A stretch of DNA of 35,300 nt from Patescibacteria group bacterium (lineage in GTDB: Bacteria > Patescibacteriota > Minisyncoccia > UBA6257 > 02-FULL-45-10c). Made by a program: the position numbers and the translations under genes. Below the pieces are notes generated by a model. That model did no database searches, was not told where the DNA came from, and worked only from the letters and a program-made list of their open reading frames with translations. The stretch covers positions 1 to 35,300 of the forward strand of contig JAMCXE010000003.1 in the NCBI GenBank assembly GCA_023474975.1, given 5' to 3'. This document shows positions 5,023 through 32,724 of the stretch, one piece after another (positions within the stretch are counted from its first letter, which is position 1; every line of letters begins with the position of its first letter).

Positions 5023-6702
5023 TTAGTTCTCGAGTTCCTCTAATGGTCCCGTTATCTTTTCCACCTCATCAAAAGTGGTAAGCCCTTGAATAACCTTCAA
5101 AATTCCATCTTCCTGCATATTCACCATTCCCTCTTTTTCTTTGGCAAATTCATCTATTTGGATCTCTCCTCCGCCGTTAGTCAAAATTTCTTCGATCTCT
5201 TTGGTAATTTTCAAAAGCTCATAAATACCAACCCTGCCCTTGTATCCAGTGCCTCCGCATTTTTCACAACCAACCGGTTCATAAATATCAAAATTTTTAT
5301 AATCATCCTTGTTCACTCTCGCCGGAAGACCTGCAACAAATTTTTCTAATTTACTTTTCATTTCATCGGAAATAGCCGCTTTTTTCTTGCAGTCAACGCA
5401 AAGTCTTTTAAGAAGACGCTGGGCAATTATCAAATTCATTGCCGGGCCGATGCTAGTAGTCCGCACGCCCAGATCTTCAAGTCTTGGAATAGCTCCGGAC
5501 GCCCTATTTGCATGAACCGTAGAAAACACTAAATGTCCGGTTAAAGACGCCTGTATCGCGATCTCTGCCGTTTCTTTATCTCTAATTTCACCGATCAAAA
5601 TAATATCCGGGTCCTGTCTCATCATAGACCTCAGTCCATTTGCAAAAGTATAGTCGGCTTCTGGATCAACTTGGGTCTGCTCTATTCCCTCCAGATGATA
5701 TTCAATAGGATCTTCGATGGTAATTATTTTACTGTCCGGAGAAGCCTTCTCTCTCAAAAAAGCATAAAGAGTTGTTGTTTTACCGGAACCCGTAGGGCCG
5801 GTATTCAAGATCATTCCATTCGGACGCTTTAGCTCCGTCTCAACTATTTTCAGATCATCGGGACGAAAACCAAGCTGAGCCATTGATAAATTAATAACAC
5901 TCGGATCCAAAATTCTCATTACAATAACCTCGCCATATTCAGAAGGAGCTATAGCTACACGAAGTTCGATATCTTTTCCCTCGCCAAAACCTATCGTAAT
6001 GCGGCCATCTTGAGCTTTATCACCAACATTCAATTTTAGATCGGCTAAAAGTTTTATTCTGGAAAGTAAATGTTTATAAATATTCATATCCAGATCAGAC
6101 ATTACATCTCGAAGATCGCCATCGATGCGATATCTAATTCTGGTCTGTTTTTCGCCCGGCTCAAAATGAATATCGGACGCTCGATTTGCCATAGCTCCGG
6201 CCAAAACGATCTCTAAAATTTGCCCGGTCGGATTATTTCTATAATCAAAAGTAGTGATCGCCTGATGCACATCATCTAGTCTTATTAATTTCTCCTTAAG
6301 AGCGCTCAGTCTGTCTTTATCGATATTTATACGTCCAGTAAGCGGTTCGGTGCTTTTTACTGCAAATTTATAAAAATCCCAGGCTTTTTTTAAACTACTC
6401 ATAGAAACCACAAAGATCTTTGGCTTTAAACCTTTTGCCTCAACAGCTTTTATTTGCGCCAAAGCTTTTGGATCTGAGGGATCAAAAACCACCAAAACAA
6501 CATCCTTACTCTTATTTTCTATCGCAGCAATTTTTGCGTCTATAGCCTCTTTTTCCGGCACAAGTAATAACGCGTCTGTTTCAATAGGCAGTAATGCAAG
6601 GTCTAAATAAGGAAAGGCGAGTCTCTCCGCCCTTCTCTGAGCGTCCCTTTCTTCAGCCTCCCTATTCATTTTTAATAATGTATCTTCCGCTTTTGTTGCC
6701 AT
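5023..6702 (-). CDS. pilB: GspE/PilB-family secretion ATPase (type IV pilus assembly ATPase-like)
   Basis: 559 aa. Walker A GPTGSGKTTT, Asp box/Walker B MRQDPDIILIGEIRD, His box GHLVFSTVHAN, and the tetracysteine motif CVDCKK..CEKCGGTGYKGRVGIYE. Confidence 0.9.
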   Translation of the reverse strand: MATKAEDTLLKMNREAEERDAQRRAERLAFPYLDLALLPIETDALLLVPEKEAIDAKIAAIENKSKDVVLVVFDPSDPKALAQIKAVEAKGLKPKIFVVSMSSLKKAWDFYKFAVKSTEPLTGRINIDKDRLSALKEKLIRLDDVHQAITTFDYRNNPTGQILEIVLAGAMANRASDIHFEPGEKQTRIRYRIDGDLRDVMSDLDMNIYKHLLSRIKLLADLKLNVGDKAQDGRITIGFGEGKDIELRVAIAPSEYGEVIVMRILDPSVINLSMAQLGFRPDDLKIVETELKRPNGMILNTGPTGSGKTTTLYAFLREKASPDSKIITIEDPIEYHLEGIEQTQVDPEADYTFANGLRSMMRQDPDIILIGEIRDKETAEIAIQASLTGHLVFSTVHANRASGAIPRLEDLGVRTTSIGPAMNLIIAQRLLKRLCVDCKKKAAISDEMKSKLEKFVAGLPARVNKDDYKNFDIYEPVGCEKCGGTGYKGRVGIYELLKITKEIEEILTNGGGEIQIDEFAKEKEGMVNMQEDGILKVIQGLTTFDEVEKITGPLEELEN

Positions 6703-13138: not shown

Positions 13139-14509
13139 TTATTCTTTATTTATAATGTCTTTTATGGCTATTATTTTTTGATTAAGATTTTGATCTTTTT
13201 CTATTTCTGCGGAAAGTTTGTTGTAGGCATAGATTGCGGTTGTATGATCTCTTTTCCCGAGTTTTTCTCCAATAGATGGATAGGACATACCCAGTAATTC
13301 GCGTAAAAGATACATGGCTATTTGTCTTGGTTCAGCTACGCTGTTTTTTCTGCAACGCCCGGTCAGGGAATTGATATCTACTTCAAAATAGTCCGCAACT
13401 GCTTTTATAACTTGAGTGCTGCTTACATTTTTAACTGGCTGTTGAAAGCTTTCGTTAATAATTTCTTCTGCTTGTTTGGCGCTGAGCTCAACATTTTTAG
13501 TGGTTTGTACGAATAAAATTTTATTTAAAACACCCTCTAACTCCCTTAGGTTCTTTTGAACTTTTGAGGCAATGACATCTATTACATTGTCGGATAAGTT
13601 AGCTCCCCTATTTTGTAATTTGGTCTTTAAAATAGCCATTCTTAGCTCATAATCAGGGAAACCGATATCGGCGATCATTCCGCCTTCAAAACGAGATCTT
13701 AATCTCTCTTCGAGCGTAGGAATGAATCTAGGCGGCCTATCAGAGGAAATGATTATTTGTTTATTATTTTCGTACAAAGAATTGAAAGTGTGAAAAAACT
13801 CTTCTTCGGTTGCCGCTTTACCCCCAATGAATTGAATATCATCGATTATCAAAACATCTGTAAGACGATATTTTTCTTTCAGGTCTTCGGTTCTTTTGTT
13901 TTTTATAGACCAAATAACATCGTTCGTGAATTTTTCGGAAGAAACATATTTTACTTTTATTTTGTTGTTGTATTCTTTTTTGATCTCATTGCCTACAGCT
14001 TGAATGAGATGTGTCTTTCCTAGACCTACGCCTCCGTATATAAAAAGTGGATTGTATTTTTTTCCGACATCTTTTATTACTGCTGTAGCTGCAGCATGTG
14101 CTAACTCATTTGATGACCCTACAACAAAGGATTTTAATGTGTATCGGGGATTGAGATTCGTTTCGGGATCAACTTTTAATTCGGCAAACGATTGCTGAAA
14201 TTTTATATCGAAACTATCCGAAGACTTTTGTTTTGTGTGCGTGGCCGAGTGTCCGGAAGAATTTTTATTTTCAACTACATATTCTATTTTTTTTGTGCTT
14301 TCGTCAAAATTTCTTAAAACAGAAAGAATGATCTTGTTATATTTATTCTCTACCCACTCTTTTGCAAAATTATTAGGCAAACTCACAAATACGACACCGT
14401 CCTGTTTGTGAGTCAACCGACTATTTTTTAGCCAGGTAAGAAAATTTGGCCTAGAAATTTGTAATTCTACTTCGCTTAACGTTGATTGCCAAAGATGTTC
14501 TAGTTCCAT
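13139..14509 (-). CDS. dnaA: Chromosomal replication initiator DnaA
   Basis: 456 aa. Walker A GGVGLGKTHL, Walker B LIIDDIQFI, and the domain IV helix-turn-helix region (RDHTTAIYAYNKL). Confidence 0.95.
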   Translation of the reverse strand: MELEHLWQSTLSEVELQISRPNFLTWLKNSRLTHKQDGVVFVSLPNNFAKEWVENKYNKIILSVLRNFDESTKKIEYVVENKNSSGHSATHTKQKSSDSFDIKFQQSFAELKVDPETNLNPRYTLKSFVVGSSNELAHAAATAVIKDVGKKYNPLFIYGGVGLGKTHLIQAVGNEIKKEYNNKIKVKYVSSEKFTNDVIWSIKNKRTEDLKEKYRLTDVLIIDDIQFIGGKAATEEEFFHTFNSLYENNKQIIISSDRPPRFIPTLEERLRSRFEGGMIADIGFPDYELRMAILKTKLQNRGANLSDNVIDVIASKVQKNLRELEGVLNKILFVQTTKNVELSAKQAEEIINESFQQPVKNVSSTQVIKAVADYFEVDINSLTGRCRKNSVAEPRQIAMYLLRELLGMSYPSIGEKLGKRDHTTAIYAYNKLSAEIEKDQNLNQKIIAIKDIINKE

Positions 14510-14871
14510 ACCGGGTTTAAAAGATTTTTAATTAAATGTTTACGACTTAATTTACTACGACTTAATTTATATTGTTATTAAACCACCAAGCCGCTGTCTA
14601 TTTCAATCCCCGTCCGTATCGCATCGATTTTTTTATATTTTTTTGCTATTTGATACAAGTTAATTTTATTACGTAACCAACAGGAGTCAAATAGTGAAAA
14701 TATAACAATGTGTTAATTAGTTGTGGAGAACTTATTTTACACCGATCATGCCCAAGTTGAAAGTCAAAAGTCGAAAGTCGAAAGTTGAAAGTCAAAAAAT
14801 CTGAAAGTTATTAGAAAGTTTTTATTTTTGTAATTTTGACTTTTGAGCTTTGACTTGTTATTCTATTTGAT
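14510..14871. other. Divergent dnaA/rpmH intergenic region; candidate oriC and promoter region
   Basis: Classical oriC location. DnaA-box-like tgtggagaa at 14722-14730 has 1 mismatch to TGTGGATAA. The 13-bp direct repeat acgacttaattta occurs twice at 14542-14569. Contains AT-rich tracts. Confidence 0.4.
14757..14856. repeat. Heptamer tandem repeat NRAAAGT (5-7 copies) followed by its inverted copy, forming a long imperfect palindrome
   Basis: tgaaagt caaaagt cgaaagt cgaaagt tgaaagt at 14758-14792, more copies at 14802-14819, and inverted ttttgacttttgagctttgactt at 14834-14856. Confidence 0.7.
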
Positions 14872-15006
14872 ATGTCACAAACTTATCAACCAGCAAAAAA
14901 GAAGAGGGCTAGAGCGCATGGTTTTCTAAAAAGAATGAAGACGCCGGGTGGAAGGCGCGTTTTGGCAAGCCGCAGAATAAAAGGCAGGAAGAGATTGGCC
15001 GTTTAA
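14872..15006 (+). CDS. rpmH: 50S ribosomal protein L34
   Basis: Below the ORF-track cut-off. My translation reads [44 protein letters not shown] (44 aa, stop TAA 15004-15006). Canonical position upstream of rnpA. Confidence 0.9.
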
Positions 15007-15023
15007 GCCTTGTTTTTAGGGCT

Positions 15024-15350
15024 ATGCTTGCAAAGAAATTCCGCCTGCAAATTCAATCGGTTTTAAACAAAAGCGGTCGCAACATCGGTAACCGCTATTT
15101 TTTATTGAAATTATTTCCCGGATCGGTCAATTACAATCGTTTTGGCGCGGTGATAAGCAAAAAGGTTCATAAAAGTGCCGTTTGGAGGAATCGTTTGAAG
15201 AGAATTATTATGGATGTTGCCGGAAAATTTATTGATGCGGGAGATCGTAATGGTCAAGAAGTCCTTATAATTGTTTCTCCGGCTATGACTAAATTAAAAA
15301 AAGCTGATATTATAAAAGAAATCGATGAATCATTGAGAAAGATTCTCTAA
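15024..15350 (+). CDS. rnpA: RNase P protein component
   Basis: 108 aa. FGAVISKKVHKSAVWRNRLKRII (RNR motif region), in the rpmH-rnpA-yidC synteny. Confidence 0.85.
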   Translation: MLAKKFRLQIQSVLNKSGRNIGNRYFLLKLFPGSVNYNRFGAVISKKVHKSAVWRNRLKRIIMDVAGKFIDAGDRNGQEVLIIVSPAMTKLKKADIIKEIDESLRKIL

Positions 15351-15422
15351 GGCTATAAAATTTAATTTTCAAGCCACTTCTGATTGAAGATTGGGATTTG
15401 AAAATTGAAAATTACAACAATT

Positions 15423-16124
15423 ATGTTCAACACATACCTATACATACCGCTTTTAAATATTCTTATTTTTTTATATAACAATTTTTCTTTTGGAAGCTTG
15501 GGTCTTGCTATTATATTGCTTACTGTTTTGATAAGAGTGATCCTTTTCCCTCTTTTTTATAAAAGCGCAAAAAGCCAAATGATAATGCAGAAGATCCAGC
15601 CGCTTATTCAAAAGATACAGAAGGATCACAAAGAGGACAAAGAAAAGCAGGCGCAGGCTCTAATGGACCTTTACAAGAAATATAAAGTTAATCCGTTTTC
15701 CAGCATTCTTATGCTATTTGTCCAAATTCCTGTATTGATAGCACTATATAGTTTGTTCAGATCCGACTTTTCTGCTATGAATTTTTCGGTTCTGTATAGC
15801 TTCGTCAGCGCTCCGCAGCATATCAATACTTTATTTTTGGGCTTGATAGATCTAAAAAGCAGCAGTATTATAATGGTAGTTTTGGCGGCAATTGCGCAGT
15901 ATTTTCAGGGCGCACTGACGCTTCCCAAAAAAGAAAAAGGAAAGGAAGTGTCCGCGGCAGAAAAAATGACCAGGCAAATGATCTATTATACCCCGCTTTT
16001 TACCGTTCTCGTTCTTTGGAAGATGCCTTCAGCCATTGGTCTTTATTGGTTGGTTACTTCTCTTTTTTCGGTGGGTCAGCAAATTTATATAAATAAAAAA
16101 GTTAAAGTTAATATTAACGAATAA
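15423..16124 (+). CDS. yidC: Membrane protein insertase YidC (short, Oxa1-like form)
   Basis: LLTVLIRVILFPL, KYKVNPFSSILMLFVQIPVLIALY and GLYWLVTSLFSVGQQ. The ORF track starts at TTG 15405; I prefer ATG 15423. Confidence 0.85.
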   Translation: MFNTYLYIPLLNILIFLYNNFSFGSLGLAIILLTVLIRVILFPLFYKSAKSQMIMQKIQPLIQKIQKDHKEDKEKQAQALMDLYKKYKVNPFSSILMLFVQIPVLIALYSLFRSDFSAMNFSVLYSFVSAPQHINTLFLGLIDLKSSSIIMVVLAAIAQYFQGALTLPKKEKGKEVSAAEKMTRQMIYYTPLFTVLVLWKMPSAIGLYWLVTSLFSVGQQIYINKKVKVNINE

Positions 16125-16127
16125 CAT

Positions 16128-16574
16128 ATGAGCAATACAGAAAGCGTTAAAAACAAAATAAAAGAGCTTTTAGAATTGGGAGGGTTCAGAGATTTTTCCG
16201 CAGAAGCCGATATCGAGGGCAAGAGGATTTCGATATTTATTAACGAATTCAACCTCGATAAAAGCGTTCTTCCTAAAATAATTGCCGATTTTGAGAGAGT
16301 GGCCAGACTTATTTCAAAGAAATTAGATCCTGCCATTGAAGATAATTTGATCCTAGATATTAATAATTACAGACGAGAGAGAGAGCGGCTCATCGCTGAA
16401 TTAGCTAAGGCTGCCGCTAGAAAGGTTTTGATCAACAAGCAAGAGGTCACATTGCCGGCGATGAATGCCTTCGAGAGAAGAATAGTCCATATGGAGCTTG
16501 CCAGTAGGCCCGACGTCAAAACCGAAAGCTTTGGAGTGGGTCCAGAAAGGCACATCGTGATCAAGCCAATATAA
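16128..16574 (+). CDS. jag: Jag/KhpB-like RNA-binding protein (KH plus R3H)
   Basis: 148 aa with the R3H region NAFERRIVHMELASRPDVKTESFGVGPERHIVIKP. Lies immediately after yidC, as in many bacteria. Confidence 0.8.
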   Translation: MSNTESVKNKIKELLELGGFRDFSAEADIEGKRISIFINEFNLDKSVLPKIIADFERVARLISKKLDPAIEDNLILDINNYRRERERLIAELAKAAARKVLINKQEVTLPAMNAFERRIVHMELASRPDVKTESFGVGPERHIVIKPI

Positions 16575-16618: not shown

Positions 16619-17779
16619 CTAAAGGCTGAGCGAGTAAACTTTGTTATCGTAACGATTTACAAATAAAAGGCTGTTATCTTTTATTTTTAGATCATAGGCA
16701 TCAAGCGGGACGTCATTTCCGTCAAATATTTTCGTGATTTTCCCAGTCGGCAGATTCATTTCAAAAATATCATCAACGAAGTAGTCGTTTTTACTATAGT
16801 AATCATCGGGAAGAGCTATCCCCGATCGAATATTCTTAGGAATGCCGCAATATATTATTTGAGAGTTGGAGCTGAATACGCATTTTTCCGGAACGGTTAC
16901 AAATGGAAGGCTGACAAGATTATTGCATAGGTCGTCTACAATGCTTAACTTTGGCATCCTTTCGGCGGAAATCAGTTTTATTCCCAGGTCACCCTTATCC
17001 GCCCATTTTATATCCGTTCCATAATCTCCGCTTGTGAGCATTTTTAGTGTTTTGGTAGCGGTATCGAATGAATAAACATATCCGCTTATATCAATTGCTG
17101 GATCGCTATAAAATAAGATCTTCTGATCGGTTATCCAGTTTAAATTAAGTCCGGCCTGGCTCATATTTTGTAATTGGCTTGTTTTTTGCGTGGTCAGATC
17201 TAGGACGTTAAGAGCTTTTTCGTTGGTATAAGCAACTTTTTTGGAGTCTGGAGAAATGGTAGCCGATATTGTGCTTACCGGAAGGGGCTGCCAGCTGGTG
17301 GAGCTGGCTGAAAAAATACTGAAAGTTGGAAGCTGAGGATAATTAAATTCGGCTATTGCCAGCGAGCCGTCTTTTGACGGGATTATAGAATGCAGATTAG
17401 TAATAGTTTGGGGGCTAACAAGCTGCCTAGTATTGTCGTTATTTATTTTTATAATTTGTCCTGCTAAATTAGCGAAGTAAACACTGCCGTCTTTTGAATT
17501 AAGCCAATATTCGGAAACCGGTGTATCAATAAATATGGAAAGCTTTTGAGTGACCGTTTGAGGGGTTTGGGTTGTCGTTTGCTCGGATGTGTTTATCGGG
17601 GCTCCAATTGCGCCGCCTTCGCCTACATTCGTTACTTCGGTGGTAGGCACCCCTCCTGTTCCGGTTAGATTACCGGTATTTCTTGAATTTAACCACTTCC
17701 AAAGGAAATAAGCGCCAATTATGATCGCGATGACTATTAATACTATAGCTATTATTTTTAATATGCGTTTGTAGTCCAT
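16619..17779 (-). CDS. Membrane-anchored protein with TolB-like (PD40/beta-propeller-like) repeats; last gene of the T4SS-like cluster
   Basis: 386 aa with N-terminal TM helix IIAIVLIVIAIIIGAYFLW. Repeated motifs SKDGSVYF, SKDGSLAIAEF and SPDSKKVAYTNE are typical of PD40-type propeller blades. Confidence 0.55.
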   Translation of the reverse strand: MDYKRILKIIAIVLIVIAIIIGAYFLWKWLNSRNTGNLTGTGGVPTTEVTNVGEGGAIGAPINTSEQTTTQTPQTVTQKLSIFIDTPVSEYWLNSKDGSVYFANLAGQIIKINNDNTRQLVSPQTITNLHSIIPSKDGSLAIAEFNYPQLPTFSIFSASSTSWQPLPVSTISATISPDSKKVAYTNEKALNVLDLTTQKTSQLQNMSQAGLNLNWITDQKILFYSDPAIDISGYVYSFDTATKTLKMLTSGDYGTDIKWADKGDLGIKLISAERMPKLSIVDDLCNNLVSLPFVTVPEKCVFSSNSQIIYCGIPKNIRSGIALPDDYYSKNDYFVDDIFEMNLPTGKITKIFDGNDVPLDAYDLKIKDNSLLFVNRYDNKVYSLSL

Positions 17780-17795
17780 TTGGTTATCTTATTAA

Positions 17796-19142
17796 TTAAG
17801 GAAGGCAGTTTCCGTCCGGTCCCGTATATCCGCTTGCGCAATATTTCGGGGGAACGACCGGTGTTGGAACAACGCATTTTCCCGCAGAATCCTTTCGATA
17901 TCCAGATTCGCAATTATTACAGGTGGTATTTGTGTCGTGTGCATAGCCAGTGGGGCATGGAGTTAGAACTAAATTTGAGGCATTGCATGTACCATCAGGC
18001 TGTCTTACGAGATTGGTTTTACAAACACAGGCTCCGTTAACTAGGTCGTTTCCGTCCGCGCATTTTGTGCAGACCATTTCGCTGGAATTAGAAGACGATA
18101 AACTAGAAACTTGTTGTCCATTATTAGTTGTATTTAAACTAAACATTCCGCCAGTGGTACCGTATACTAAGCACCCAGGTGATCCAGATCCAGAAGTTTC
18201 CGATACTGAATTATTGCTTCCACTAGTAGAACACCCATTTTTTGTGGTTGCGTCTAATTTACAATTTGGTCCACACGGCTGGGATATATTTGAATAATCA
18301 GGGGTTATTTGAGAGCAGTCGGTTACTTGAGTGGCTGGAGGCAAGAAAGAATCTAGATCGATCGGCTCCAGGCCGGGGTTTTTTAAATTAACTAAATTCG
18401 GATTTATTGTGTAAAGAATTAAATAGGCTCCGAGGAGAAGAAGTATTCCGTATATGGCATTCAACATCCACGTCTTACCCTCTTCTTTGGAAGCCATATT
18501 TCCGGCAGACAGGGTGTACAAAGCAGCTCCATATATTACCGCACCTAAAGCCACGAATCCGACGATCATCAGGCCGAATTGATAAAGTCTGGCAATATAT
18601 CCCGCCGGGTTATCAGGGGTTGGACACTGGCCGTTTATTCCAAGAGCGTTGGGATTGCATGGAATAGTAACTTTAAGTTCATACGGTTTTATTGTTGCGC
18701 TAAGATTGGCGTCTTGAGGCATTACGTTTTGAGGTATTGAAGCCATGACACACCTCCATCCAGTACCTGAACCAACAGGACAATCTGTTACCGTGTAAGT
18801 ACAAACTGTACCGCTTGGGCATGGTATTACGGTTTTGTCGCAGAGAGCATTTTTTCCACTAATTGCAGTTCCAACTGATGCGCAATCACCATTAGACTTA
18901 TAAGTTGTTGGTCCGCTTGGTGATGGAGCAATATTTTCCCCAATAGTTCCTTTTGCAACGCATATACCCGGTTCCGGCGTGATATGCCATTCGCAATTTG
19001 TATTTGGTGCCGTGCAACTACTGGAGTCTAGTTTCGAACAATCAATTGATGTTTGTGCAAAACTCACCGGAATTGAATTAAAGACAAATAAAAATCCCAT
19101 CAATGAAACTGCAAATATTTTTTTAAAATAGTTTAAATTCAT
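17796..19142 (-). CDS. Cys-rich secreted/membrane protein containing a VirB2/TrbC-like (T4SS pilin-like) TM hairpin
   Basis: 448 aa with a signal peptide (..IPVSFAQT). The central hairpin is YQFGLMIVGFVALGAVIYGAALYTLSAGNMASKEEGKTWMLNAIYGILLLLGAYLILYTINP. About 28 Cys residues all lie outside the hairpin. The C-terminal motif C-x2-GY-x(6-8)-C occurs three times. Confidence 0.55.
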   Translation of the reverse strand: MNLNYFKKIFAVSLMGFLFVFNSIPVSFAQTSIDCSKLDSSSCTAPNTNCEWHITPEPGICVAKGTIGENIAPSPSGPTTYKSNGDCASVGTAISGKNALCDKTVIPCPSGTVCTYTVTDCPVGSGTGWRCVMASIPQNVMPQDANLSATIKPYELKVTIPCNPNALGINGQCPTPDNPAGYIARLYQFGLMIVGFVALGAVIYGAALYTLSAGNMASKEEGKTWMLNAIYGILLLLGAYLILYTINPNLVNLKNPGLEPIDLDSFLPPATQVTDCSQITPDYSNISQPCGPNCKLDATTKNGCSTSGSNNSVSETSGSGSPGCLVYGTTGGMFSLNTTNNGQQVSSLSSSNSSEMVCTKCADGNDLVNGACVCKTNLVRQPDGTCNASNLVLTPCPTGYAHDTNTTCNNCESGYRKDSAGKCVVPTPVVPPKYCASGYTGPDGNCLP

Positions 19143-19256: not shown

Positions 19257-20009
19257 TTACTTTATATCTAAATTGACATAATTTCTTGCGAATTCATAGT
19301 AGCTAGCCGGATTTTGAATGGTGATATTTATGCCCGTATTGGCGCCGACCGCAGGATTTCCTTGCGTAGTGGTCGTTAAATTAAGGATGGATGGGTTTCC
19401 AGATTGGCCAGAAACATCGGAGCCGTCAACGTTCCAAGAAATATTAAGCTGGCTTGGATCAGAAACATTGAAGAAATAAGGTATGGCCTGAAGTGGATTG
19501 GTGCCGACCTTAATAGTTCTGGCTGGATAGGGCGCATTTATAACAGCCTTTGCTTGCGTAGTTGGAATTGTAGTTAGCCCCTCTAAATCACCCATTGGAT
19601 ATTTGGCGTCTTTATATTTGGGGATGCTGATGCTTATCTGAGGGTTTACTTGATTGACGGTAAACTTTACAGATTTTAATCCTACCCCCGATTGCAAAAG
19701 ATTGTCGCCTAAATACCAAAGTATGTTTTGCTCGGAAAGATCTACAAATTTGCCCTGATCAAGGCAATCGAAGCTTACTTCTACCGAAGAGCCGATCGTA
19801 GGCATAACTTTCCCCGGGTAATTTGCTGGTACATAATTGGTCGCGCGCCAGGAAATCAAAAAATCAAAGTTGGGATTGATGGGTGTGGTAGTAATAGAAG
19901 GGATGTTTGGGGCAACTTGAGCATTTGCGGATGACCCGATAAGCATTCCTAAAATAGCTAAATACGCTAAGGAAGATGCGTTTTTTTTGATTAGATCGAT
20001 CAGCTTCAT
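19257..20009 (-). CDS. Secreted hypothetical protein (signal peptide, beta-rich)
   Basis: 250 aa. The N-terminal region AYLAILGMLIGSSANAQ looks like a signal peptide. I recognise no domain. Confidence 0.55.
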   Translation of the reverse strand: MKLIDLIKKNASSLAYLAILGMLIGSSANAQVAPNIPSITTTPINPNFDFLISWRATNYVPANYPGKVMPTIGSSVEVSFDCLDQGKFVDLSEQNILWYLGDNLLQSGVGLKSVKFTVNQVNPQISISIPKYKDAKYPMGDLEGLTTIPTTQAKAVINAPYPARTIKVGTNPLQAIPYFFNVSDPSQLNISWNVDGSDVSGQSGNPSILNLTTTTQGNPAVGANTGINITIQNPASYYEFARNYVNLDIK

Positions 20010-20533: not shown

Positions 20534-22249
20534 TTAAGCATTTTGCTGTTGGAGAATTTGCTCTGGTTTTGTAGTAACAATTTTATCTTCAAGATAAGAC
20601 GCTATTATTTTAATGGCAACATGATTAAGTCCGGCAAAGAAAAGTCCCTCACCTACCGCAGCTTCAAGCAGAAGATTTTTTTCGCCCTCTGTAAGTCCAA
20701 AAGATTTTATAATGAGATCTATCATTGTTGGCGACTGTTTCAATAAAAGCTGCAAAGAGGAATTGGTGATGATCGGGCGGCCATAGGGAGATTTAAGGAA
20801 GTCTTCCACGTCTTGTGTGATCGTGGTGACTCCAAGATAATATTTTCTGCATCTCTTTACTAAGCCAAACATAAAAGAGGCTCCGTCTTCGTATTTCATA
20901 AGCACCCACGCCTCATCTACTATCAGTACTCTTTTTTTGAGCTCTGCTCTAATCAAGCTCCAGATGAAATTCAAGACGATATACATAGCGATCGGCCTAA
21001 GCTCTTCTTCCAGGTCACGGATAGAAAAAACTATTAATCGATTTTTTATATCAACATTGGTTGGCTGATTGGTGAAACCGGCGTAGCTGCCTTGAGTATA
21101 TTTATAAAGGCGCTGCGCCATTGTTTTTCCTCCCTCCATGTTTTCCAAAATTTTTTGAAGATCTTCTAGAAGCGGCGGAATCGCTTTGCTAAAATCTTTA
21201 CCCGGAGCGATATCATGAGAGGCGTAGGTTTCGGAAATGGCTCTATCTAAAAGAGCATCTTCTTCTGGGGTAAGCTGGCCCATCATTAATTTTAACAATC
21301 CGGCAATATTAACAATGTGTGAACGCAAAACATCACTTGGATCTTCGTCTTTGGGTATGATCGGAAGGTCGAAGGGATTGATGTGGTGCTGGGAGGCCAG
21401 AGAGATCCTAAAATAACTTCCGCCAACGGAAGATGCCAGCGCTTCATATTCATTTTCCGGATCTATGATCAAGATATCAGTTCCCATCATAAGCAGACGC
21501 AATGCTTCGAGTTTGACTGCATAGCTTTTTCCGGCACCCGCTTTAGCAAAAACAACCATATTGGCATTCTCTAAAGAAAATCTATCAAAAACTATCATCG
21601 AATTATTACTTTCATTGATCCCATAAAGTATTCCGTTGTCGGAGGTAAGATCCGCTGAAGTGAATGGGAAGAATGATGATAGCGGTCCGGAATTGAGAGG
21701 ATTGTAAATTAATAAGCGATCTTGACCGAGCGGAATGGACGAGCTAAATCCTTCAGTTTGTTGAAATAATGCTGGTTTTATATAGACTAGTCGGCTTTCG
21801 AGCAGATTGGTTATTCTCCCTTCTAATTTGTTTAGTTGCTCTATCGTTTCAGCATAAATGGTGATATAGACGCTTACATTAAAAAGCTGTTCGCGCGCTT
21901 GTTGAAGCGAATCTCTTAGTCCCTCAATATCTTGAAATGCGGTTTCAAGCATTGGGTCTCTTACCACGCCCTTTTCTTGTTTTTCATATATTTGAGATTC
22001 GACCTGAGCCGCTTTCTTTCTAAGTTGTTTTAACGCTAGGTTTGTTTCTATAGGATGAACGAAGATAGATATATCTATAAGATCGGGCATATCTATGATT
22101 TGAGAGAACCAGCCAGTGGAAAGAAATCGCGGGTAAGAAAATATAAAAAGAGTTTTGGCTAGCTTGTCGCCAATTTTTATGAAATTTGAATTCACTTCCA
22201 CTGCCGCCGGGGCAATTATGTCTATTATATTTTTTGCTGTATCAGCCAT
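20534..22249 (-). CDS. virB4: VirB4/TrbE/CagE-like type IV secretion ATPase (short form)
   Basis: 571 aa. Walker A FAKAGAGKSYAVK, Walker B RVLIVDEAWVLM, and downstream GVTTITQD. The overall architecture is VirB4/AAA_10-like. Confidence 0.85.
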   Translation of the reverse strand: MADTAKNIIDIIAPAAVEVNSNFIKIGDKLAKTLFIFSYPRFLSTGWFSQIIDMPDLIDISIFVHPIETNLALKQLRKKAAQVESQIYEKQEKGVVRDPMLETAFQDIEGLRDSLQQAREQLFNVSVYITIYAETIEQLNKLEGRITNLLESRLVYIKPALFQQTEGFSSSIPLGQDRLLIYNPLNSGPLSSFFPFTSADLTSDNGILYGINESNNSMIVFDRFSLENANMVVFAKAGAGKSYAVKLEALRLLMMGTDILIIDPENEYEALASSVGGSYFRISLASQHHINPFDLPIIPKDEDPSDVLRSHIVNIAGLLKLMMGQLTPEEDALLDRAISETYASHDIAPGKDFSKAIPPLLEDLQKILENMEGGKTMAQRLYKYTQGSYAGFTNQPTNVDIKNRLIVFSIRDLEEELRPIAMYIVLNFIWSLIRAELKKRVLIVDEAWVLMKYEDGASFMFGLVKRCRKYYLGVTTITQDVEDFLKSPYGRPIITNSSLQLLLKQSPTMIDLIIKSFGLTEGEKNLLLEAAVGEGLFFAGLNHVAIKIIASYLEDKIVTTKPEQILQQQNA

Positions 22250-22270
22250 AATATTTTTTTAAATTCATGT

Positions 22271-22972
22271 TTATTGAGCAACCTTTTTCTCTATTGTGCT
22301 GGGATTGTATAGGTTGTAGAAAAGCTCGGAAAGTTCTTCGTCGTTTAATGGCACAACTCTGAGCCCGATCTGATTTAAGCCGTCGACGACCTCGCCGACC
22401 CTTTGATCGAGTTGTTCAAGATATTCTTTCTCCGTTTGTTTTTTTTCATCCCCCTCATTTTTTTTCTTTCCAAAGAGGCCGAATACGGCGCTCTTAAGGC
22501 CGGCGCCGGTATCTGAAACACGTATGGGATCTAGCGGGACAACCACAAAAAAGTTTTTGGACATTATTGCATTTTGAGAAACAAAGGATTTTATAAATTC
22601 CCTGTATTCAAATATTTGATTCTTCAAAAGCTCGTTGGTCTCTTGATTTTCTCTTTCCTCTACTTTTCTTAAATAATTGTCGATATTTATTTTTCTTGAA
22701 TGTATAAAAATTTGAAGAGTGAAATCAACGGAATTCAAAAAACCTTGAAAGGCGGAGGTTATCATTTCCTGCTCTTCGGCCGATTTGAGATCGAAGTTTA
22801 TTCCCGAAACAATGAGTATCCTCCTATATGCCCCACCCCTTAGCTTTATTACGCCGTTATTAATAGAATCGATATTAACGAATTGTTGTGTAGCGAAAGA
22901 CGGTTCTTTTGATTCTTGTATGTTAGGCATATGTTTAAGTATACAATTGTTTAATTCTTTATTTATAATCAA
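22271..22972 (-). CDS. Hypothetical soluble protein resembling a VirB4 N-terminal module
   Basis: 233 aa. The pattern FVNIDSINNGVIKLRGGAYRRILIVSGINFDLKSAEEQEMITSAFQGFLNSVDFTLQIFIHS parallels the N-terminus of the adjacent ATPase. The track start is TTG 22972; ATG at 22930 is an alternative. Confidence 0.5.
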   Translation of the reverse strand: MIINKELNNCILKHMPNIQESKEPSFATQQFVNIDSINNGVIKLRGGAYRRILIVSGINFDLKSAEEQEMITSAFQGFLNSVDFTLQIFIHSRKINIDNYLRKVEERENQETNELLKNQIFEYREFIKSFVSQNAIMSKNFFVVVPLDPIRVSDTGAGLKSAVFGLFGKKKNEGDEKKQTEKEYLEQLDQRVGEVVDGLNQIGLRVVPLNDEELSELFYNLYNPSTIEKKVAQ

Positions 22973-23471
22973 CTCTTCGGGCCATCTCTTTCTCTCCGGT
23001 TATTTTTCTGAAAACCTCGTATTTTTCCTGATGCGATCTGAATTGATCAAAAATAGCCGGCTGAGTCGTTTTTTCTCTAGCTGGTATGGGGGTTTTTGAA
23101 GTAAGAAGTTTTTGCCATATATCGTTCAATGGATTTGCGCCTTCTTTTATCTGTGCGGGCTCTTTCGTTTTTTCTATTTTTTGGCCGGGGGCGGCAGTTT
23201 TTTTCCAAAGATAAAATTTAGGCTTCCAGAAATAACCAATAGCTGCGCTAACTATTTTAGGCAGTGGAATGCCGTTTATTTTTATGAAGGCCAAAGATAT
23301 TGTAGCTGTATTTATCAGCACTATCGAAAAGGCCCAAAGCCACAAATTAAAGAAGAAGAATAAGAAAAAAGAAAGGCCGGCGCCGATCGTGATGTAGACG
23401 AATTGCTTAAGGGTTAGCGGCCCGATTATCTTGTCTTCTGTGTCTATAAATTGAGGGACTTGAAACTGCAT
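22959..23471 (-). CDS. PrgI/TcpE-family (VirB3-like) membrane protein
   Basis: MQFQVPQFIDTEDKIIGPLTLKQFVYITIGAGLSFFLFFFF.. followed by a second TM helix, which is the characteristic PrgI-family N-terminus. I prefer ATG 23471 over the track's TTG 23483. Confidence 0.6.
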   Translation of the reverse strand: MQFQVPQFIDTEDKIIGPLTLKQFVYITIGAGLSFFLFFFFNLWLWAFSIVLINTATISLAFIKINGIPLPKIVSAAIGYFWKPKFYLWKKTAAPGQKIEKTKEPAQIKEGANPLNDIWQKLLTSKTPIPAREKTTQPAIFDQFRSHQEKYEVFRKITGEKEMARRVDYK

Positions 23472-23507
23472 ATGTTTGACCAACGACTAACAACTGACGA
23501 CTTACGA

Positions 23508-23864
23508 CTAATGAGTTAATAATTTTTTCTTAAAACCACCCAATTGACTAGAGATACTTGATAACTTTACAAAAAGTATATCAAACTCTGCTTTGGTTAT
23601 AAAACCACTATCTTTTAATATATCTGGCGCGGCTAGTGTTTCACTAACGGAGCCTAGTGCTATTTCTATATATCTGTTGAGTTCCTTGTCAGATGTTTTA
23701 CCACTACCCTCGGCGATATTCAGAACAATTGAAAGAGCTGACCGTATTAATTGACTACCTATCTCGTATCTATATTCTTTTGGTGTTTTTTAACTATGTA
23801 TAATTGCTAGCACTTCTTTAGAATCTGTATAAGCTTTCCATTTCAAAAATCTGATTTTTTCCAT
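23508..23864 (-). pseudogene. Four-helix-bundle protein (23S rRNA intervening-sequence protein family) interrupted by an in-frame TAA
   Basis: My translation reads MEKIRFLKWKAYTDSKEVLAIIHS*KTPKEYRYEIGSQLIRSALSIVLNIAEGSGKTSDKELNRYIEIALGSVSETLAAPDILKDSGFITKAEFDILFVKLSSISSQLGGFKKKLLTH. The NIAEGSG..S.KE...Y..IALGS signature is present. The TAA is codon 25 (23790-23792), in the same frame on both sides. Confidence 0.6.
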
Positions 23865-23871
23865 TTTGTCG

Positions 23872-24988: not shown

Positions 24989-27019
24989 TTATTTTCCTTC
25001 TTCCTGTTTAGCTTTTGTTTCTTTCATGAATTTTTTTAGTTCTTTTATATCCTTATCTGAGGCATTGTTAGATTTAGATTTTTTAATAAGTTCCTCGCTT
25101 TCGGAGATCTTTTTATGAAGATCGTTAACTTTTTGCAATGTATTTTCTTTAGAATTTTTTACCAGCCTTGTTAGATTGATAATGCGTTCTTGTGCGATTC
25201 TCTTTTCTTCCGGGTTCGTTATTTTAGCTATTTTAGCATTTAGTTCCGCTAGGTCTTTTTCGAATATAGCCGATCTGTCACCTCCACCCGCGTTGCCCCG
25301 AGCTTCTTTTTGTTGGCTTGCGGAAATGATCGTTTGTTGATTTATGCTTATTGGCTGATCTATCGCCGTTTTAGTTGCTCTGACATTCTCTAGTGCTTTG
25401 GCTATACCGTCTCTTTCTTGTTCTAGTTTTGACAAATCTGAACCTTGAGGATTTTTACGCGCAGCATCTATCTCTAGCATTTTCTCCTCCCATTTCTTAT
25501 TAAGCTCCCCTTCCTCTTCTGTTAATGCCGACTTCATTGTTAATTTTTCTTTCTCCGCGAATTCTTTTTCTGGACCAGCTTGCTTTGTTTTTTCATTTTC
25601 TGTACGCTCATTTTCTTTCTCTTTATATTCCTTCTCTTCTTTTAAGCGTAATTTTCTAGAGTTCCAGCCTAAGCCGGCGCCGATTTCTTCTGATGTGGCG
25701 GTATAAATTCCGCTAAGGCCACCATATGTTTTTTGGAAGTCTTCTGAGGATTTGGCGACTTGTCTAAGCGGCCTTGTCGCGCTTCTGACCAAGCCATACT
25801 TTGAATTTTTATACTTTTCACCAAATTCTCCAACTTTCTTAGCAGCAAATCCAAGACCAGTAAGACCTATTGCTGTAGACGCGGTTCCTTTTAAGATGCC
25901 ATTTATTGCTCCGGTTGCAGCATTAGTAGTCCATTTTCCCGCAATGCCAGAACCCTCTTCGGCTTTTTTAATACCATACATCAGTATCGCAACCACCATG
26001 ATCATAGAACCGATGTTCGGACCCATACTTTGTATCACGTGACTCGGGTCGTCAACCAAAGCTTTTTGCATATTTGGTGTGTCCACAATGCCTTGTATTG
26101 CGGTATAGGATTTAAGCGCTATGTAAATGTAAAATCCGGCGATTGGTCCGAAGAATGTTTGCTGTAAAAATTTTTTAGACCAATCTGACCAGCCACTTCC
26201 TCCTATTACCCAACCTATTATTGCAGCCGGTAAAGTTATTAAAAGAATGCCGATAATCACATATCTCATCAAGAACATTGCCGCTAATCCGAACATGGTG
26301 ATGGCGCCAACTGCCGTAATTATATCGGCAAATATCAGGCTTGCTAATACCTGTACTGTGGCTGCGCCAAAATTAAGAAGGGTAGAGTTAGGATCGAGCG
26401 TTGGAGGCTGCAATACTTTATACATTTGCATTGCGCTAGACAGCGCTTGAGCGACGCCGCCGTTACCGGATTGACTATTGAAGGAAGCTAGGAAGAAATT
26501 TGTAAGCATTCCGGCGAAATCAAGAACTACAGTTGCCAGGAGTAAGCTAAAGTTAATAAGAAGAGCCGCTATTATAAGCTTAGGTAGAGCTTTTTTAACT
26601 TGCAGTGAACCGGTATTTAAAATAGTTTCAAATGCAATGATTATTATTAAAAATACAAAGGCGAGATTGGCAATATCCCTGGTTATCGGCCAGCCGATCT
26701 GAACTGCAGGATTATCAACAATATTAGAATTTAATTCCAAAACCCAGTTTAATATTATTCCGCCTAAAAAAAGAGCGAGATGGAAAAAATACCCCAGAAC
26801 ATACAATAGTAAGGTGAGTATCCAGGATACCGCTGTCATTATGCTTTTGCCTGGATTTGTAATGAAATCTAGCGCGCTGGGTGTCGATGGCGCGTTTGAT
26901 GCCACCTGAGTAGCAGATGACGCAGCCTGCTGGGCGTGGGCAAAACTATGCGGTATTAATAAAAACACCGCCACTAATAGTCCGACAAAAATTATTTTCC
27001 TTATGTCTATTTTTTTCAT
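24989..27019 (-). CDS. VirB6/TrbL-like polytopic membrane protein with a long Lys/Glu-rich coiled-coil C-terminal tail
   Basis: 676 aa. Signal peptide (..HSFAHAQQ), about 8 hydrophobic helices over residues 60-400 or so, then about 230 aa of charged coiled coil. The assignment rests on topology and context only. Confidence 0.5.
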   Translation of the reverse strand: MKKIDIRKIIFVGLLVAVFLLIPHSFAHAQQAASSATQVASNAPSTPSALDFITNPGKSIMTAVSWILTLLLYVLGYFFHLALFLGGIILNWVLELNSNIVDNPAVQIGWPITRDIANLAFVFLIIIIAFETILNTGSLQVKKALPKLIIAALLINFSLLLATVVLDFAGMLTNFFLASFNSQSGNGGVAQALSSAMQMYKVLQPPTLDPNSTLLNFGAATVQVLASLIFADIITAVGAITMFGLAAMFLMRYVIIGILLITLPAAIIGWVIGGSGWSDWSKKFLQQTFFGPIAGFYIYIALKSYTAIQGIVDTPNMQKALVDDPSHVIQSMGPNIGSMIMVVAILMYGIKKAEEGSGIAGKWTTNAATGAINGILKGTASTAIGLTGLGFAAKKVGEFGEKYKNSKYGLVRSATRPLRQVAKSSEDFQKTYGGLSGIYTATSEEIGAGLGWNSRKLRLKEEKEYKEKENERTENEKTKQAGPEKEFAEKEKLTMKSALTEEEGELNKKWEEKMLEIDAARKNPQGSDLSKLEQERDGIAKALENVRATKTAIDQPISINQQTIISASQQKEARGNAGGGDRSAIFEKDLAELNAKIAKITNPEEKRIAQERIINLTRLVKNSKENTLQKVNDLHKKISESEELIKKSKSNNASDKDIKELKKFMKETKAKQEEGK

Positions 27020-29482: not shown

Positions 29483-30511
29483 TTATAGATCCTTAATAAT
29501 TGATGCAAGTTTTAAGATATCGTTTACGGATAAGTTTTGCGGTCTGGAGTTTAGCGGCAGATCTAATGATCCAAGAGCTTTTTCTATTTGTTCTTTCGGA
29601 ATATCCGATCCGGATCTGAGATTGTTTAGCAATGTTTTTCTTGGTTGCTTGAAGATCGTGTGAATTAGTTTGTAATAGTTTTCTATTTCTTTTGCGAGAT
29701 TCTCATTTTTTATCTTGTCATTGCGAGAAGTCTGCGGCGCGGCAATCTCATGATGCATAGATCGCTTCGCTTTGCTCGCAATGACAGATTGGAGACTGTT
29801 AATTTCTTTTTTGGTGATTAGTCTAATAACGGCAGAATCAACATCTGGCGCGGGTTCGAAATCGGTAGGCTTCAGTTTAAAAATAATTTCTGGTTCTGCC
29901 CAGAATTGAGTTGCCGCCGCAAGCAAATTCATTCCGCTATAAACTGTTTTTATTCTGTCATTGCGAGGTCTCGCCCGTAGGGCTGCGACCGAGGGAGTCT
30001 GCGACGCGGCAATCTCATTAAGTCCAGATTGCTTCGGCAGCACTCGCAATGACGGTTTTGGTTGAGCGGCGATTCTTTCGGCTACTTCTTTTTGGACCAT
30101 TATAACGGTCAATTTTGGTTTGTATTCAAGCTCGCTAATAATTCTGAGTAATTTTCCGGTTATGTAATATGGGATATTGCCGACAATATTAAATTTTAAA
30201 TTTTTAATTTTTAATTCCTGAACGATTTTTGGCAGAACCTTTAACGCGTCGCCTTCAATGATTTCAACACCGTTTAGTTTTAAATTTTGAACTTTATTTT
30301 TCAGCTCGGTTGCCAATTCCCGATCTTTTTCTATGGCAATTATTTTAAAATTAGAAAGTGTAAGCTTAAAGCTTTCTGCCATAGGCAGGGTAAGCGCTCC
30401 TTTGCCGGGACCGATCTCGATAATTACATCGCCCTCCTCGATATTCAAGGCCGCGACTATTTTAGAAATAGCAACTTTATTTTTCAAGAAGTGTTGACCG
30501 AGTTTTTGCAT
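29483..30511 (-). CDS. rsmA: 16S rRNA (adenine1518/1519-N6)-dimethyltransferase RsmA/KsgA carrying two in-frame repeat insertions
   Basis: LGQHFLKNKVAISKIV, IIEIGPGKGALT, FNIVGNIPYYIT, MVQKEVAERI and FEPAPDVDSAVIRL. At 342 aa it is longer than is usual for this family because of two GC-rich inserts. Confidence 0.85.
   Translation of the reverse strand: MQKLGQHFLKNKVAISKIVAALNIEEGDVIIEIGPGKGALTLPMAESFKLTLSNFKIIAIEKDRELATELKNKVQNLKLNGVEIIEGDALKVLPKIVQELKIKNLKFNIVGNIPYYITGKLLRIISELEYKPKLTVIMVQKEVAERIAAQPKPSLRVLPKQSGLNEIAASQTPSVAALRARPRNDRIKTVYSGMNLLAAATQFWAEPEIIFKLKPTDFEPAPDVDSAVIRLITKKEINSLQSVIASKAKRSMHHEIAAPQTSRNDKIKNENLAKEIENYYKLIHTIFKQPRKTLLNNLRSGSDIPKEQIEKALGSLDLPLNSRPQNLSVNDILKLASIIKDL
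29717..29785. repeat. 69-bp GTCATTGCGAG...CTCGCAATGAC palindromic element inside the rsmA CDS
   Basis: Ends at 29717-29727 and 29775-29785. 69 bp equals 23 codons. Translated as ..VIASKAKRSMHHEIAAPQTSRND.. Confidence 0.75.
29957..30053. repeat. 97-bp GTCATTGCGAG...CTCGCAATGAC palindromic element inside the rsmA CDS
   Basis: Ends at 29957-29967 and 30043-30053. Shares the core agtctgcgNcgcggcaatctcat with the 69-bp copy. Translated as ..SLRVLPKQSGLNEIAASQTPSVAALRARPRND.. Confidence 0.75.
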
Positions 30512-32659: not shown

Positions 32660-32724
32660 TTTTATGGTATTTTGTATATATTATTGATATCTTACGACAA
32701 CAATTAAATAAAGCAAAGGATTTG

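Follow-up and report, generated by a model that had tools for sequence, protein, structure and literature searches.

Here we describe a gene whose 448-amino-acid (aa) product is well supported as a PF18895 pilin-family component of a chromosomal type IV secretion system (T4SS) close to the replication origin (oriC), with a core of ~110 residues extended at both ends. The gene lies in a 35,300-nucleotide stretch of DNA from a Patescibacteria group bacterium (assembly GCA_023474975.1, contig JAMCXE010000003.1, positions 1 to 35,300), hereafter the window. Patescibacteria, for which the name Candidate Phyla Radiation (CPR) is also in use, account for a large part of the diversity of bacteria and, it appears, live attached to the cells of hosts. 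To our knowledge, their oriC-proximal T4SS is essential in one species tested genetically, and we know of no adhesin identified for it. A preliminary description of the gene, made from the letters of the DNA, had proposed a VirB2-like pilin hairpin held between two large cysteine-rich domains.

The open reading frame (ORF) starts with ATG on the minus strand and runs in a continuous frame to give 448 aa plus a stop. Hydropathy analysis bore out the layout that had been described, namely a signal peptide, two Cys-rich domains and a hairpin. Three hydrophobic segments were found, at residues 8-29, 183-214 and 224-251. The first, with its KK n-region, hydrophobic core and VSFA-Q c-region, looks like a Sec signal peptide with cleavage after VSFA, a site deduced by the -3/-1 rule. 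The other two make up a Cys-free, two-helix hydrophobic hairpin of the PF18895 type, which is also present in the AlphaFold2 (AF2) model as two helices (residues 179-211 and 216-246). The predicted local distance difference test score (pLDDT) of this model is 63.5 overall and 84-91 over the hairpin. On the N side of the hairpin are ~150 aa (residues 30-182) with 12 Cys and on the C side ~197 aa (residues 252-448), where a 16-Cys domain carries C-x2-GY repeats; the sizes first estimated, ~170 and ~190 aa, were close. The mature product would be ~419 aa long, its ~110-aa core being flanked by domains of 120 aa and 186 aa.

The hairpin is matched by PF18895 (T4SS_pilin) over residues 185-245, corresponding to profile positions 11-70 of 71 (E 7.3e-4, 20.0 bits). 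For this profile the gathering cut-off of 26.6 bits served as the operational threshold. A large-database search returned 90 homologues, of which all the named ones are Patescibacteria, and PF18895 is matched by 85 of these 90 at E ≤0.01 (best 5.7e-11). Moreover, minimal pilins of 115-170 aa match the 448-aa protein at ~E 1e-21 and clear the PF18895 cut-off with 28-43 bits; P0157, P0191, P0163, P0171 and P0182 match it at E 1e-20 to 1e-21 and score 36-43 bits. By this transitive homology we regard membership of the PF18895 superfamily as established on sequence grounds, despite the sub-threshold score of the protein itself. The pilin-profile check that had been proposed for the hairpin thus found similarity, both directly and through links to minimal pilins above the cut-off.

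An exhaustive search of 1.84 billion representative proteins returned 9632 clusters with E ≤1e-3, of which 1121 reached E ≤1e-10. The signature common to the set is Y-x3-Y-x-F...G...SAGN...DAK...G-L-x-LLLGAYLILYTINPxLVxL, in which SAGN is among the best-conserved positions. Ahead of helix 1, Y-x3-V-x-IP(C/G) aligns with the mature N-terminus of the minimal pilins, whose mature length is ~100 aa. Because this motif marks where the minimal pilins begin, residues 150-262 are taken to equal one complete minimal pilin.

The full architecture recurs in about 74 of the 90 homologues, each with a signal peptide, a Cys-rich N-domain (107-268 aa before the hairpin), a Cys-free hairpin and a Cys-rich C-domain (21-233 aa). 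These sequences come from independent assemblies or contigs (JGI, ENA, NCBI and Logan). The preliminary description had allowed for an artefact of assembly or frameshift that fused unrelated genes. Such a joining of two or three genes, and likewise an ORF arisen by chance, is refuted by the recurrence of the three-part layout, by the continuous frame and by conserved gene order; nothing was found in its favour, leaving it a negligible probability.

Conservation within the 74 homologues is concentrated in the hairpin. The mean fraction of residues identical to the 448-aa protein is 0.72 in helix 1 and 0.70 in helix 2, 0.43-0.44 in the membrane-proximal flanks, 0.11 in the N-domain and 0.10-0.22 in the C-domain. 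The contrast that had been anticipated, a conserved hairpin with variable ectodomains, is also seen among the four closest homologues (P0002-P0005), whose cores are 79-85% identical but whose N-domains share 19-26% and C-domains 42-72%. Judged from this alignment, the N-domain is effectively replaced between close relatives. In a helical-moment test the conserved positions were not limited to one helix face; the result was not significant either way and is weak evidence.

We then considered the genomic distribution of the family. A scan of 185,579 species genomes yielded 215 relatives, and 80 loci were fetched. The relatives are nearly all Patescibacteria metagenome-assembled genomes (MAGs), including bins labelled Harrison-, Azam-, Wolfe-, Yanofsky-, Sungii- and Magasanikbacteria, Paceibacterota and Saccharibacteria, and a VirB4 gene was found within 6 kb in 52/80 loci. 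In 39 loci a pilin-family ORF stands directly beside a homologue of the 386-aa gene, the gene directly downstream of the 448-aa gene in the window. Its length there varies continuously from 123 to 473 aa, comprising 12 minimal, 14 C-extended and 12 N+C-extended forms and one extended at the N-terminus only. Since one slot spans this range, the 448-aa protein is the positional orthologue of minimal pilins with add-on domains. The architecture belongs to a broad, continuous range of decorated PF18895 proteins and is no one-off, and Patescibacterial T4SS pilins near dnaA are already published (PMC12102498, PMC10633639). Both points qualify the earlier view of an unusual surface structure.

At the far end of the range are giant C-extended members, namely L055 (1035 aa, 71 Cys), L063 (917 aa, 43 Cys), L051 (747 aa, 50 Cys) and L076 (557 aa, 34 Cys). 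Some of the giant C-extended proteins adjoin T4SS genes. Other members hold tandem hairpins in one polypeptide: four in P0091 and P0092, and three in P0093, P0094, P0099, L067 (a 609-aa ORF) and P0120 (891 aa). P0091 ends in an SLT lytic-transglycosylase domain (PF01464, 6.5e-19) and P0092 does likewise by sequence motif only. P0093 and P0099 end in a Cys-rich domain with a CGLFQ motif.

Arrays of 2-4 pilin-family genes with no VirB4, PrgI or TrsD within 6 kb account for 21/80 loci (L030, L033, L035, L036, L040, L042, L043, L057, L058, L060 and L063 among the array loci). Many such arrays combine one long, Cys-rich protein with a short partner of ~150 aa. Pilin-family genes also occur in MAGs labelled as Gammaproteobacteria (L062, L067, L081), Bdellovibrionales (L082, L086) and Methanoregula (L078), labels that are probably due to mis-binning or mislabelling. 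In L082 and L086 there are, in addition, VirB4-like genes of Patescibacterial type.

The second line of evidence comes from the cysteines. A direct count gave exactly 28, in agreement with the earlier estimate, with 12 at residues 35-173, 16 at residues 276-446 and none in the hairpin-bearing stretch 174-275. The Cys content of the protein is 6.2%, against 0.33% (13 Cys / 3939 aa) in 11 other proteins of its operon. Both flanks hold an even number in 71/74 full-architecture homologues (the N side alone in 73/74), and no hairpin Cys occurs in the 74. In a wider set of 192 relatives both flanks are even in 177, with hairpins essentially Cys-free. Cys parity per flank is expected of intradomain disulfides and, together with the signal peptide, it argues for extracellular, disulfide-bonded flanks, in line with the earlier placement of both Cys-rich domains outside the cell. 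An N-out/C-out topology with disulfides and a cytoplasmic SAGN/KEEGK turn is therefore the predicted and supported arrangement. Every one of the 74 homologues (100%) retains C162 and C173 of the loop IPC...G-x-CP, whereas the minimal pilins have IPG there and no Cys. Conservation in the 74 homologues reaches ~90-96% for C87, C121, C324, C358 and C361 and 80-88% for C372, C374 and C386. Among the ORFs scanned in the window there was no match to DsbA, VKOR or MdbA. MdbA-like oxidoreductases and VKOR are CPR-enriched families (PMC6744442).

The spacing of the C-terminal cysteines is non-random. In the C-domain 6/15 Cys-Cys spacings are 10-11 residues, a number reached by 10/20000 shuffles, and the three CxxGY motifs were reached by 0/20000. 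The three C-x2-G-Y-x(6-8)-C repeats that had been noticed are present, as CPTGYAHDTNTTC at 396, CESGYRKDSAGKC at 411 and CASGYTGPDGNC at 435. More broadly, C-x(10-11)-C loops lie at 361-372, 374-386, 396-408, 411-423 and 435-446, two pairs of loops being joined by 1-2 residues. The copy number of the repeat varies from 0 to 3 among homologues. Modelled alone, the C-domain (residues 262-448) was predicted as a row of small beta-hairpins, with a mean pLDDT of 70.8 that rose to 78-93 in residues 356-448. A homologue search seeded with the C-domain alone recovered no sequence, the parent protein included, and is uninformative, probably owing to the word index or a composition filter.

The suggestion that these repeats are EGF-like or furin-like found no significant backing. 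A Foldseek search with the C-domain model returned nothing significant (best E 0.12), its top weak matches being NELL2, netrin, SCARF1, Pfs25 and R-spondin, nearly all tandem EGF, laminin-EGF or furin-like repeats. A PDB sequence search with the family profile gave a TIL-like inhibitor fragment at E 1.2 as its best match and no pilin. The 448-aa protein itself has no EGF-type Pfam match; matches at ~1e-3 to the Pfam models cEGF, TIL or TNFR-like come from single homologues. Because the Foldseek matches are weak (E 0.12 or worse), we do not place the C-domain in the EGF families. The likeness to EGF-like, laminin-EGF and furin-like repeats lies in small tandem modules of disulfide-stapled beta-hairpins. 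However, the pattern here is C-x(10-11)-C, often paired as C-x10/11-C-x1/2-C-x11-C, whereas EGF has a six-Cys pattern with 1-3, 2-4 and 5-6 disulfides. In the model the C-terminal repeats appear as small, putatively disulfide-stapled beta-hairpins with a shape like that of EGF-type rods.

The third line of evidence is genomic context. The window surrounds the replication origin and includes rnpA, yidC, jag, dnaA, dnaN, a class A penicillin-binding protein gene, ruvABC-type genes and a PilB-like ATPase gene. The 448-aa gene belongs to a long minus-strand operon (~29421 to 16619) that encodes, in order, a 256-aa protein, a 534-aa secreted protein, a 676-aa polytopic protein, a 364-aa Pro-rich protein, PrgI/VirB3, a TrsD-like protein, VirB4, a 153-aa membrane protein, a 250-aa secreted protein, the 448-aa protein and the 386-aa protein (Table 1). 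This T4SS operon is wedged between ksgA and the oriC set of jag, yidC, rnpA, dnaA and dnaN (window positions 13139-16574 and 29483-30511). The operon order is identical in L001 (GCA_027372035.1) and L003 (Harrisonbacteria-type), with ksgA on one side and jag/yidC/dnaA on the other. The 448-aa gene is the sole hairpin gene in the window, and its counterpart is likewise the sole pilin-family gene in the syntenic operons L001-L004.

Patescibacterial T4SSs of an MPF-FATA-like (mating pair formation) type comprise TrsD, PrgI, VirB6 and VirB2-like pilins, are often near dnaA and are usually without a relaxase (Quinonero-Coronel et al. 2025, PMC12102498), and the origin-proximal placement seen here matches that report. 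The same study places VirB2-like pilins near virB4 and dnaA, in arrays of 2-11, and detected no PrgB-like adhesin (PMC12102498), while the pilin array of the T4SS cluster is essential in Ca. Southlakia epibionticum (PMC10633639). As the split of VirB4 into two ORFs (20534-22972) is the same in L001 and L003, it is a conserved feature and no frameshift, and it is consistent with the MPF-FATA type (PMC12102498). By its position, the 676-aa protein is a candidate VirB6/PrgH analogue. For the 386-aa protein the sole Pfam hint is a weak beta-propeller match (E 0.0015). NCBIfam and PADLOC scans of the pilin-family gene and its neighbours gave no match beyond VirB4 and TrsD, and a PDB sequence search with the 676-aa and 534-aa neighbours gave none. 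A promoter and terminator scan found nothing above shuffled expectation on the coding strand, and an Rfam scan of the window found no match.

Table 1. Position in the window of the parts of the 448-aa protein and of neighbouring T4SS-operon genes.
Feature	Position	Strand	Basis
Whole ORF, decorated PF18895-family pilin, 448 aa	17796..19142	-	
Putative signal peptide, residues 1-29 (MNLNYFKK, hydrophobic core, VSFA-Q)	19056..19142	-	Hydropathy; FA-Q end conserved in homologue alignment
Hypervariable N-terminal predicted ectodomain, residues 30-149, 10 Cys	18696..19055	-	19-26% identity in four closest homologues; AF2 pLDDT <50
Conserved pilin core, residues 150-262, equal to complete mature minimal pilin	18357..18695	-	Alignment; ~E 1e-21 to small pilins
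Membrane-proximal loop IPC162...G-x-C173-P, residues 160-174	18621..18665	-	Both Cys in 100% of 74 full-architecture homologues
Hydrophobic helix 1, residues 183-214 (RLYQFGLMIVGFVALGAVIYGAALYTLSAG)	18501..18596	-	Hydropathy, AF2; PF18895 match residues 185-245
Polar turn, residues 215-223 (NMASKEEGK)	18474..18500	-	AF2 turn at SAGN 212-215
Hydrophobic helix 2, residues 224-251, ending in near-invariant LYTINPxL	18390..18473	-	Hydropathy, alignment
C-terminal predicted ectodomain, residues 263-448, 16 Cys	17799..18356	-	Cys count, conservation, AF2
Conserved C-domain sub-module, residues 321-395	17958..18182	-	C324, C358, C361, C372, C374, C386 kept in 80-96% of homologues
Repeated mini-modules with putative Cys staples, residues 358-446 (C-x2-G-Y in three of five C-x(10-11)-C loops)	17805..18071	-	Shuffle test
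676-aa polytopic membrane protein	24989..27019	-	Multiple hydrophobic segments; no Pfam/PDB match
PrgI (VirB3-like)	22959..23483	-	Pfam PF12666, 7.9e-10
TrsD-like, 233 aa, equal to VirB4 N-terminal part	22271..22972	-	NCBIfam; homologue annotated TraC-like (PF26593) in L001, L003
VirB4-type ATPase (C-terminal part), 571 aa, two genes upstream of pilin	20534..22249	-	P-loop_TraG 3e-25; NCBIfam conju_CD1110 7.8e-113
250-aa secreted protein directly upstream of pilin, conserved partner in synteny	19257..20009	-	
386-aa protein directly downstream, N-terminal transmembrane anchor, large extracytoplasmic domain	16619..17779	-	Homologue beside pilin-family gene in 39 loci

Elsewhere in the window, a 388-bp stretch (23484-23871) between the 364-aa gene and prgI holds no ORF of at least 60 aa and no Rfam match. 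Just past the operon, with ksgA and a UvrD-type helicase gene in between, is a gene for a peptidase with two LysM domains and an M23 domain (32722-33747, plus strand). VirB1-like proteins of Paceibacteria carry M23/LysM domains (PMC12102498), and this peptidase could be a VirB1 substitute. A PilB/GspE-type ATPase gene (5023-6702, minus strand; T2SSE 3.3e-118) is also present and indicates a type IV pilus system in this genome segment as well. At the left end of the window are genes for a lamin-tail-domain (LTD) protein (644-1126) and a NERD nuclease-related protein (1252-2040), both on the minus strand.

How might such a protein work? We favour a reading in which it is a decorated pilin-family subunit assembled into a T4SS surface structure, with outer domains that make host contact, and we judge this about equally likely to be right or wrong. 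The signal peptide would direct Sec export and be cleaved after VSFA. The N-domain would be translocated, helix 1 would stop transfer, the SAGN/K-E-E-G-K turn would stay in the cytoplasm, helix 2 would re-insert and the C-domain would be translocated in turn, both flanking domains then folding outside the cell with intradomain disulfides. The resulting pool of membrane hairpins may be engaged by the VirB4/VirB3/VirB6-like machine encoded upstream, which would pack one hairpin against the next to build a surface structure associated with the T4SS, in the way proposed for VirB2-type pilins. Such assembly is suggested by helices that are extremely conserved, by orthologues that consist of a bare hairpin and by the tandem-hairpin fusions that occur naturally. 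The conserved helices would form the core with both termini outward, and the variable domains would coat the outside. They may offer a lineage-specific surface for contact with the host cell, filling the role of an adhesin where no PrgB-like protein is found in Patescibacteria; this host-contact role of the ectodomains is putative.

A number of results weigh against this reading, among them the relation to canonical VirB2, to which homology was not demonstrable in the comparisons made. No match to PF04956 at E ≤0.01 was found in any of the 90 family members. Comparison by hhalign with 8 VirB2/TrbC sequences gave a probability of 1%, and a profile of the hairpin only against 128 such sequences, which make a VirB2 profile that is not very diverse, gave P 0.021 and a probability of 2% with 57 collinear columns across both helices (the VirB2/TrbC sequences were taken from plasmids and the protein database). 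With the full-length AF2 model, Foldseek found nothing in the PDB at E ≤0.001, and the archaeal conjugation pilin of A. pernix (8dfu) came out at E 7 with a target-normalised template modelling score of 0.62. The fold search is uninformative, since the fold of a helical hairpin is too simple to discriminate and no usable model of the N-domain was obtained (AF2 pLDDT <50). Moreover, the protein's own PF18895 score lies below the gathering cut-off, and given the 21 array loci, smaller pilin genes may exist elsewhere in the source genome. The geometry is also demanding, as ~340 outer-domain residues on a core of 80-110 residues are a heavy load for a VirB2-type 5-start filament and the outer mass is ~4x that of the core. 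From F-pilus geometry, the outer surface available to each subunit is estimated at roughly 700 square angstroms. On geometric reasoning, elongated and radially projecting domains alone would fit, and a rod-like C-domain would ease packing. Lastly, polymerisation of PF18895 proteins is itself hypothetical: in the literature found, a T4SS pilus has not been shown for any Patescibacterium, and a recent review notes only the potential of these systems to make pili (PMC12857230).

What stands of the VirB2-like claim is the PF18895 match (also made by 85/90 homologues) and the T4SS context; the comparison with the canonical VirB2 profile was not significant. We use the term VirB2-like on account of topology, gene context and published structure-based annotation (PMC10633639), with no demonstrated homology.

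Some of these points would suit a different reading, in which the protein is a membrane-anchored surface protein that does not polymerise. Its hairpin would be a two-pass anchor docked laterally into the T4SS membrane complex of VirB3/VirB6-like proteins, and its ectodomains would cross the thin wall as a cell-bound adhesin or receptor. The large ectodomain mass relative to the core, the non-significant similarity to canonical VirB2 and a Patescibacterial T4SS pilus known as a potential only (PMC12857230) all favour it, and hairpins fused to an enzyme in relatives (SLT in P0091, and by motif in P0092) fit the display of cargo. However, a plain anchor would not need 60-85% identity or near-invariant SAGN and LYTINPxL across thousands of clusters, the minimal members (~100 aa when mature) have almost nothing to anchor, and the tandem fusions of 3-4 hairpins suggest hairpin-hairpin packing. 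We consider this reading possible, though doubtful.

We find it unlikely that the protein is a minor or tip/cap subunit, with a shaft of minimal PF18895 pilins encoded elsewhere and a rare decorated paralogue, for example at the tip or at initiation, presenting adhesive domains. Such an arrangement would remove the steric problem, and it draws support from related genomes whose 2-4-gene arrays mix short and long members, often away from T4SS genes (21/80 loci), as well as from the reported arrays of 2-11 pilins (PMC12102498). Against it, the gene is the sole member of the pilin family in the window and in operons L001-L004, and the same slot holds a minimal pilin in other lineages, which suggests a principal pilin and no accessory. 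More improbable by far is a protein that the T4SS exports as a substrate or translocon, its hairpin entering the host envelope and its Cys-rich domains serving as targeting modules; the general point that a T4SS without relaxase or coupling protein may export proteins (PMC10633639, PMC12102498) allows for it, but no data point to release of the protein, and a cleavable Sec signal peptide with disulfide-rich flanks indicates Sec export and co-translational insertion into the producer's own membrane. The Pam pili of CPR (bioRxiv 10.64898/2026.03.03.709456) were rejected as an explanation, having an immunoglobulin-like fold and donor-strand exchange unrelated to a hairpin.

Returning to the favoured reading of a decorated, assembling subunit, the nearest known proteins are the Patescibacterial VirB2-like pilins of PF18895, including the array of Ca. 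Southlakia epibionticum and those of Quinonero-Coronel et al. 2025. The 448-aa protein shares with them a homologous core with YxxxYxF...SAGN...LYTINPxL, a signal peptide and a VirB4/TrsD/PrgI cluster near dnaA (PMC12102498, PMC10633639). It differs in size, since the published proteins are treated as small, and in its 120-aa hypervariable Cys-rich domain before the core, its 186-aa Cys-rich domain after it and an invariant C162-C173 loop that the minimal pilins lack. Moreover, it scores below the Pfam cut-off and is a single operon gene with no array.

With canonical TrbC/VirB2/TraA (PF04956) it has in common a signal peptide, two hydrophobic helices with a short polar turn, proximity to virB3/virB4 and the expected N-out/C-out topology, with both termini outward in a filament. 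The loop of published F- and T-pilus structures lines the lumen; here the prediction for the polar turn (residues 215-223) is that it faces the cytoplasm or, within a filament, the lumen, its sidedness following from the proposed topology. Unlike those Gram-negative pilins, which are ~70-110 aa and essentially hairpin, the mature protein is ~4x larger, shows no significant sequence or profile similarity, belongs to a monoderm and gave no evidence of cyclisation, acetylation or a VirB5 tip protein.

Two further systems are alike in design or role. Flagellins with hypervariable outer domains, an analogy with no homology, also combine a strongly conserved helical core, the presumed site of polymer contacts, with surface regions that vary freely between lineages in sequence, size and domain count; however, the variable part of flagellin is mid-chain, whereas here it sits at both termini of a membrane hairpin, and fold, export route and machinery are unrelated. 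The PrgB-type adhesins of Gram-positive conjugative T4SSs share the proposed role of target-cell contact for a monoderm T4SS. There is no sequence relationship to them (no Pfam match), and PrgB is separate and sortase-anchored, whereas the putative adhesive domains here are fused to the hairpin.

Earlier papers (PMC10633639, PMC12102498, PMC12857230) describe VirB2-like pilins of Patescibacteria, report that they form arrays, lie near dnaA and are essential in one species, and treat the proteins as small. A full-text literature search returned no description of Cys-rich-flanked forms, disulfide parity, a one-slot length continuum or tandem-hairpin-SLT fusions.

Taken together, these data indicate that a T4SS pilin-family protein can carry large, hypervariable, disulfide-stabilised surface domains, making it a candidate determinant of host specificity, and that one gene slot ranges from bare hairpins to Cys-rich proteins of >1000 aa. 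For T4SS biology, this would be the first subunit of pilin type to bear a large folded domain at each terminus. In the minimal and decorated forms nature provides a set of constructs with which pilus formation by these hairpins could be probed. A further and more speculative step, which we put forward tentatively and think somewhat improbable, is a "bottle-brush" T4SS pilus in a monoderm, every VirB2-type subunit bearing two disulfide-rich, rapidly replaceable outer domains, so that pilin and adhesin are one polypeptide and host range is tuned by module swaps on a nearly unchanging hairpin core. If true, the outer-domain principle of flagellin would have been reinvented on a conjugative-pilus scaffold, with minimal, C-extended, N+C-extended, giant (>1000 aa, 71 Cys) and enzyme-fused forms in the slot, and it would explain the missing PrgB-like adhesin of Patescibacterial T4SSs.

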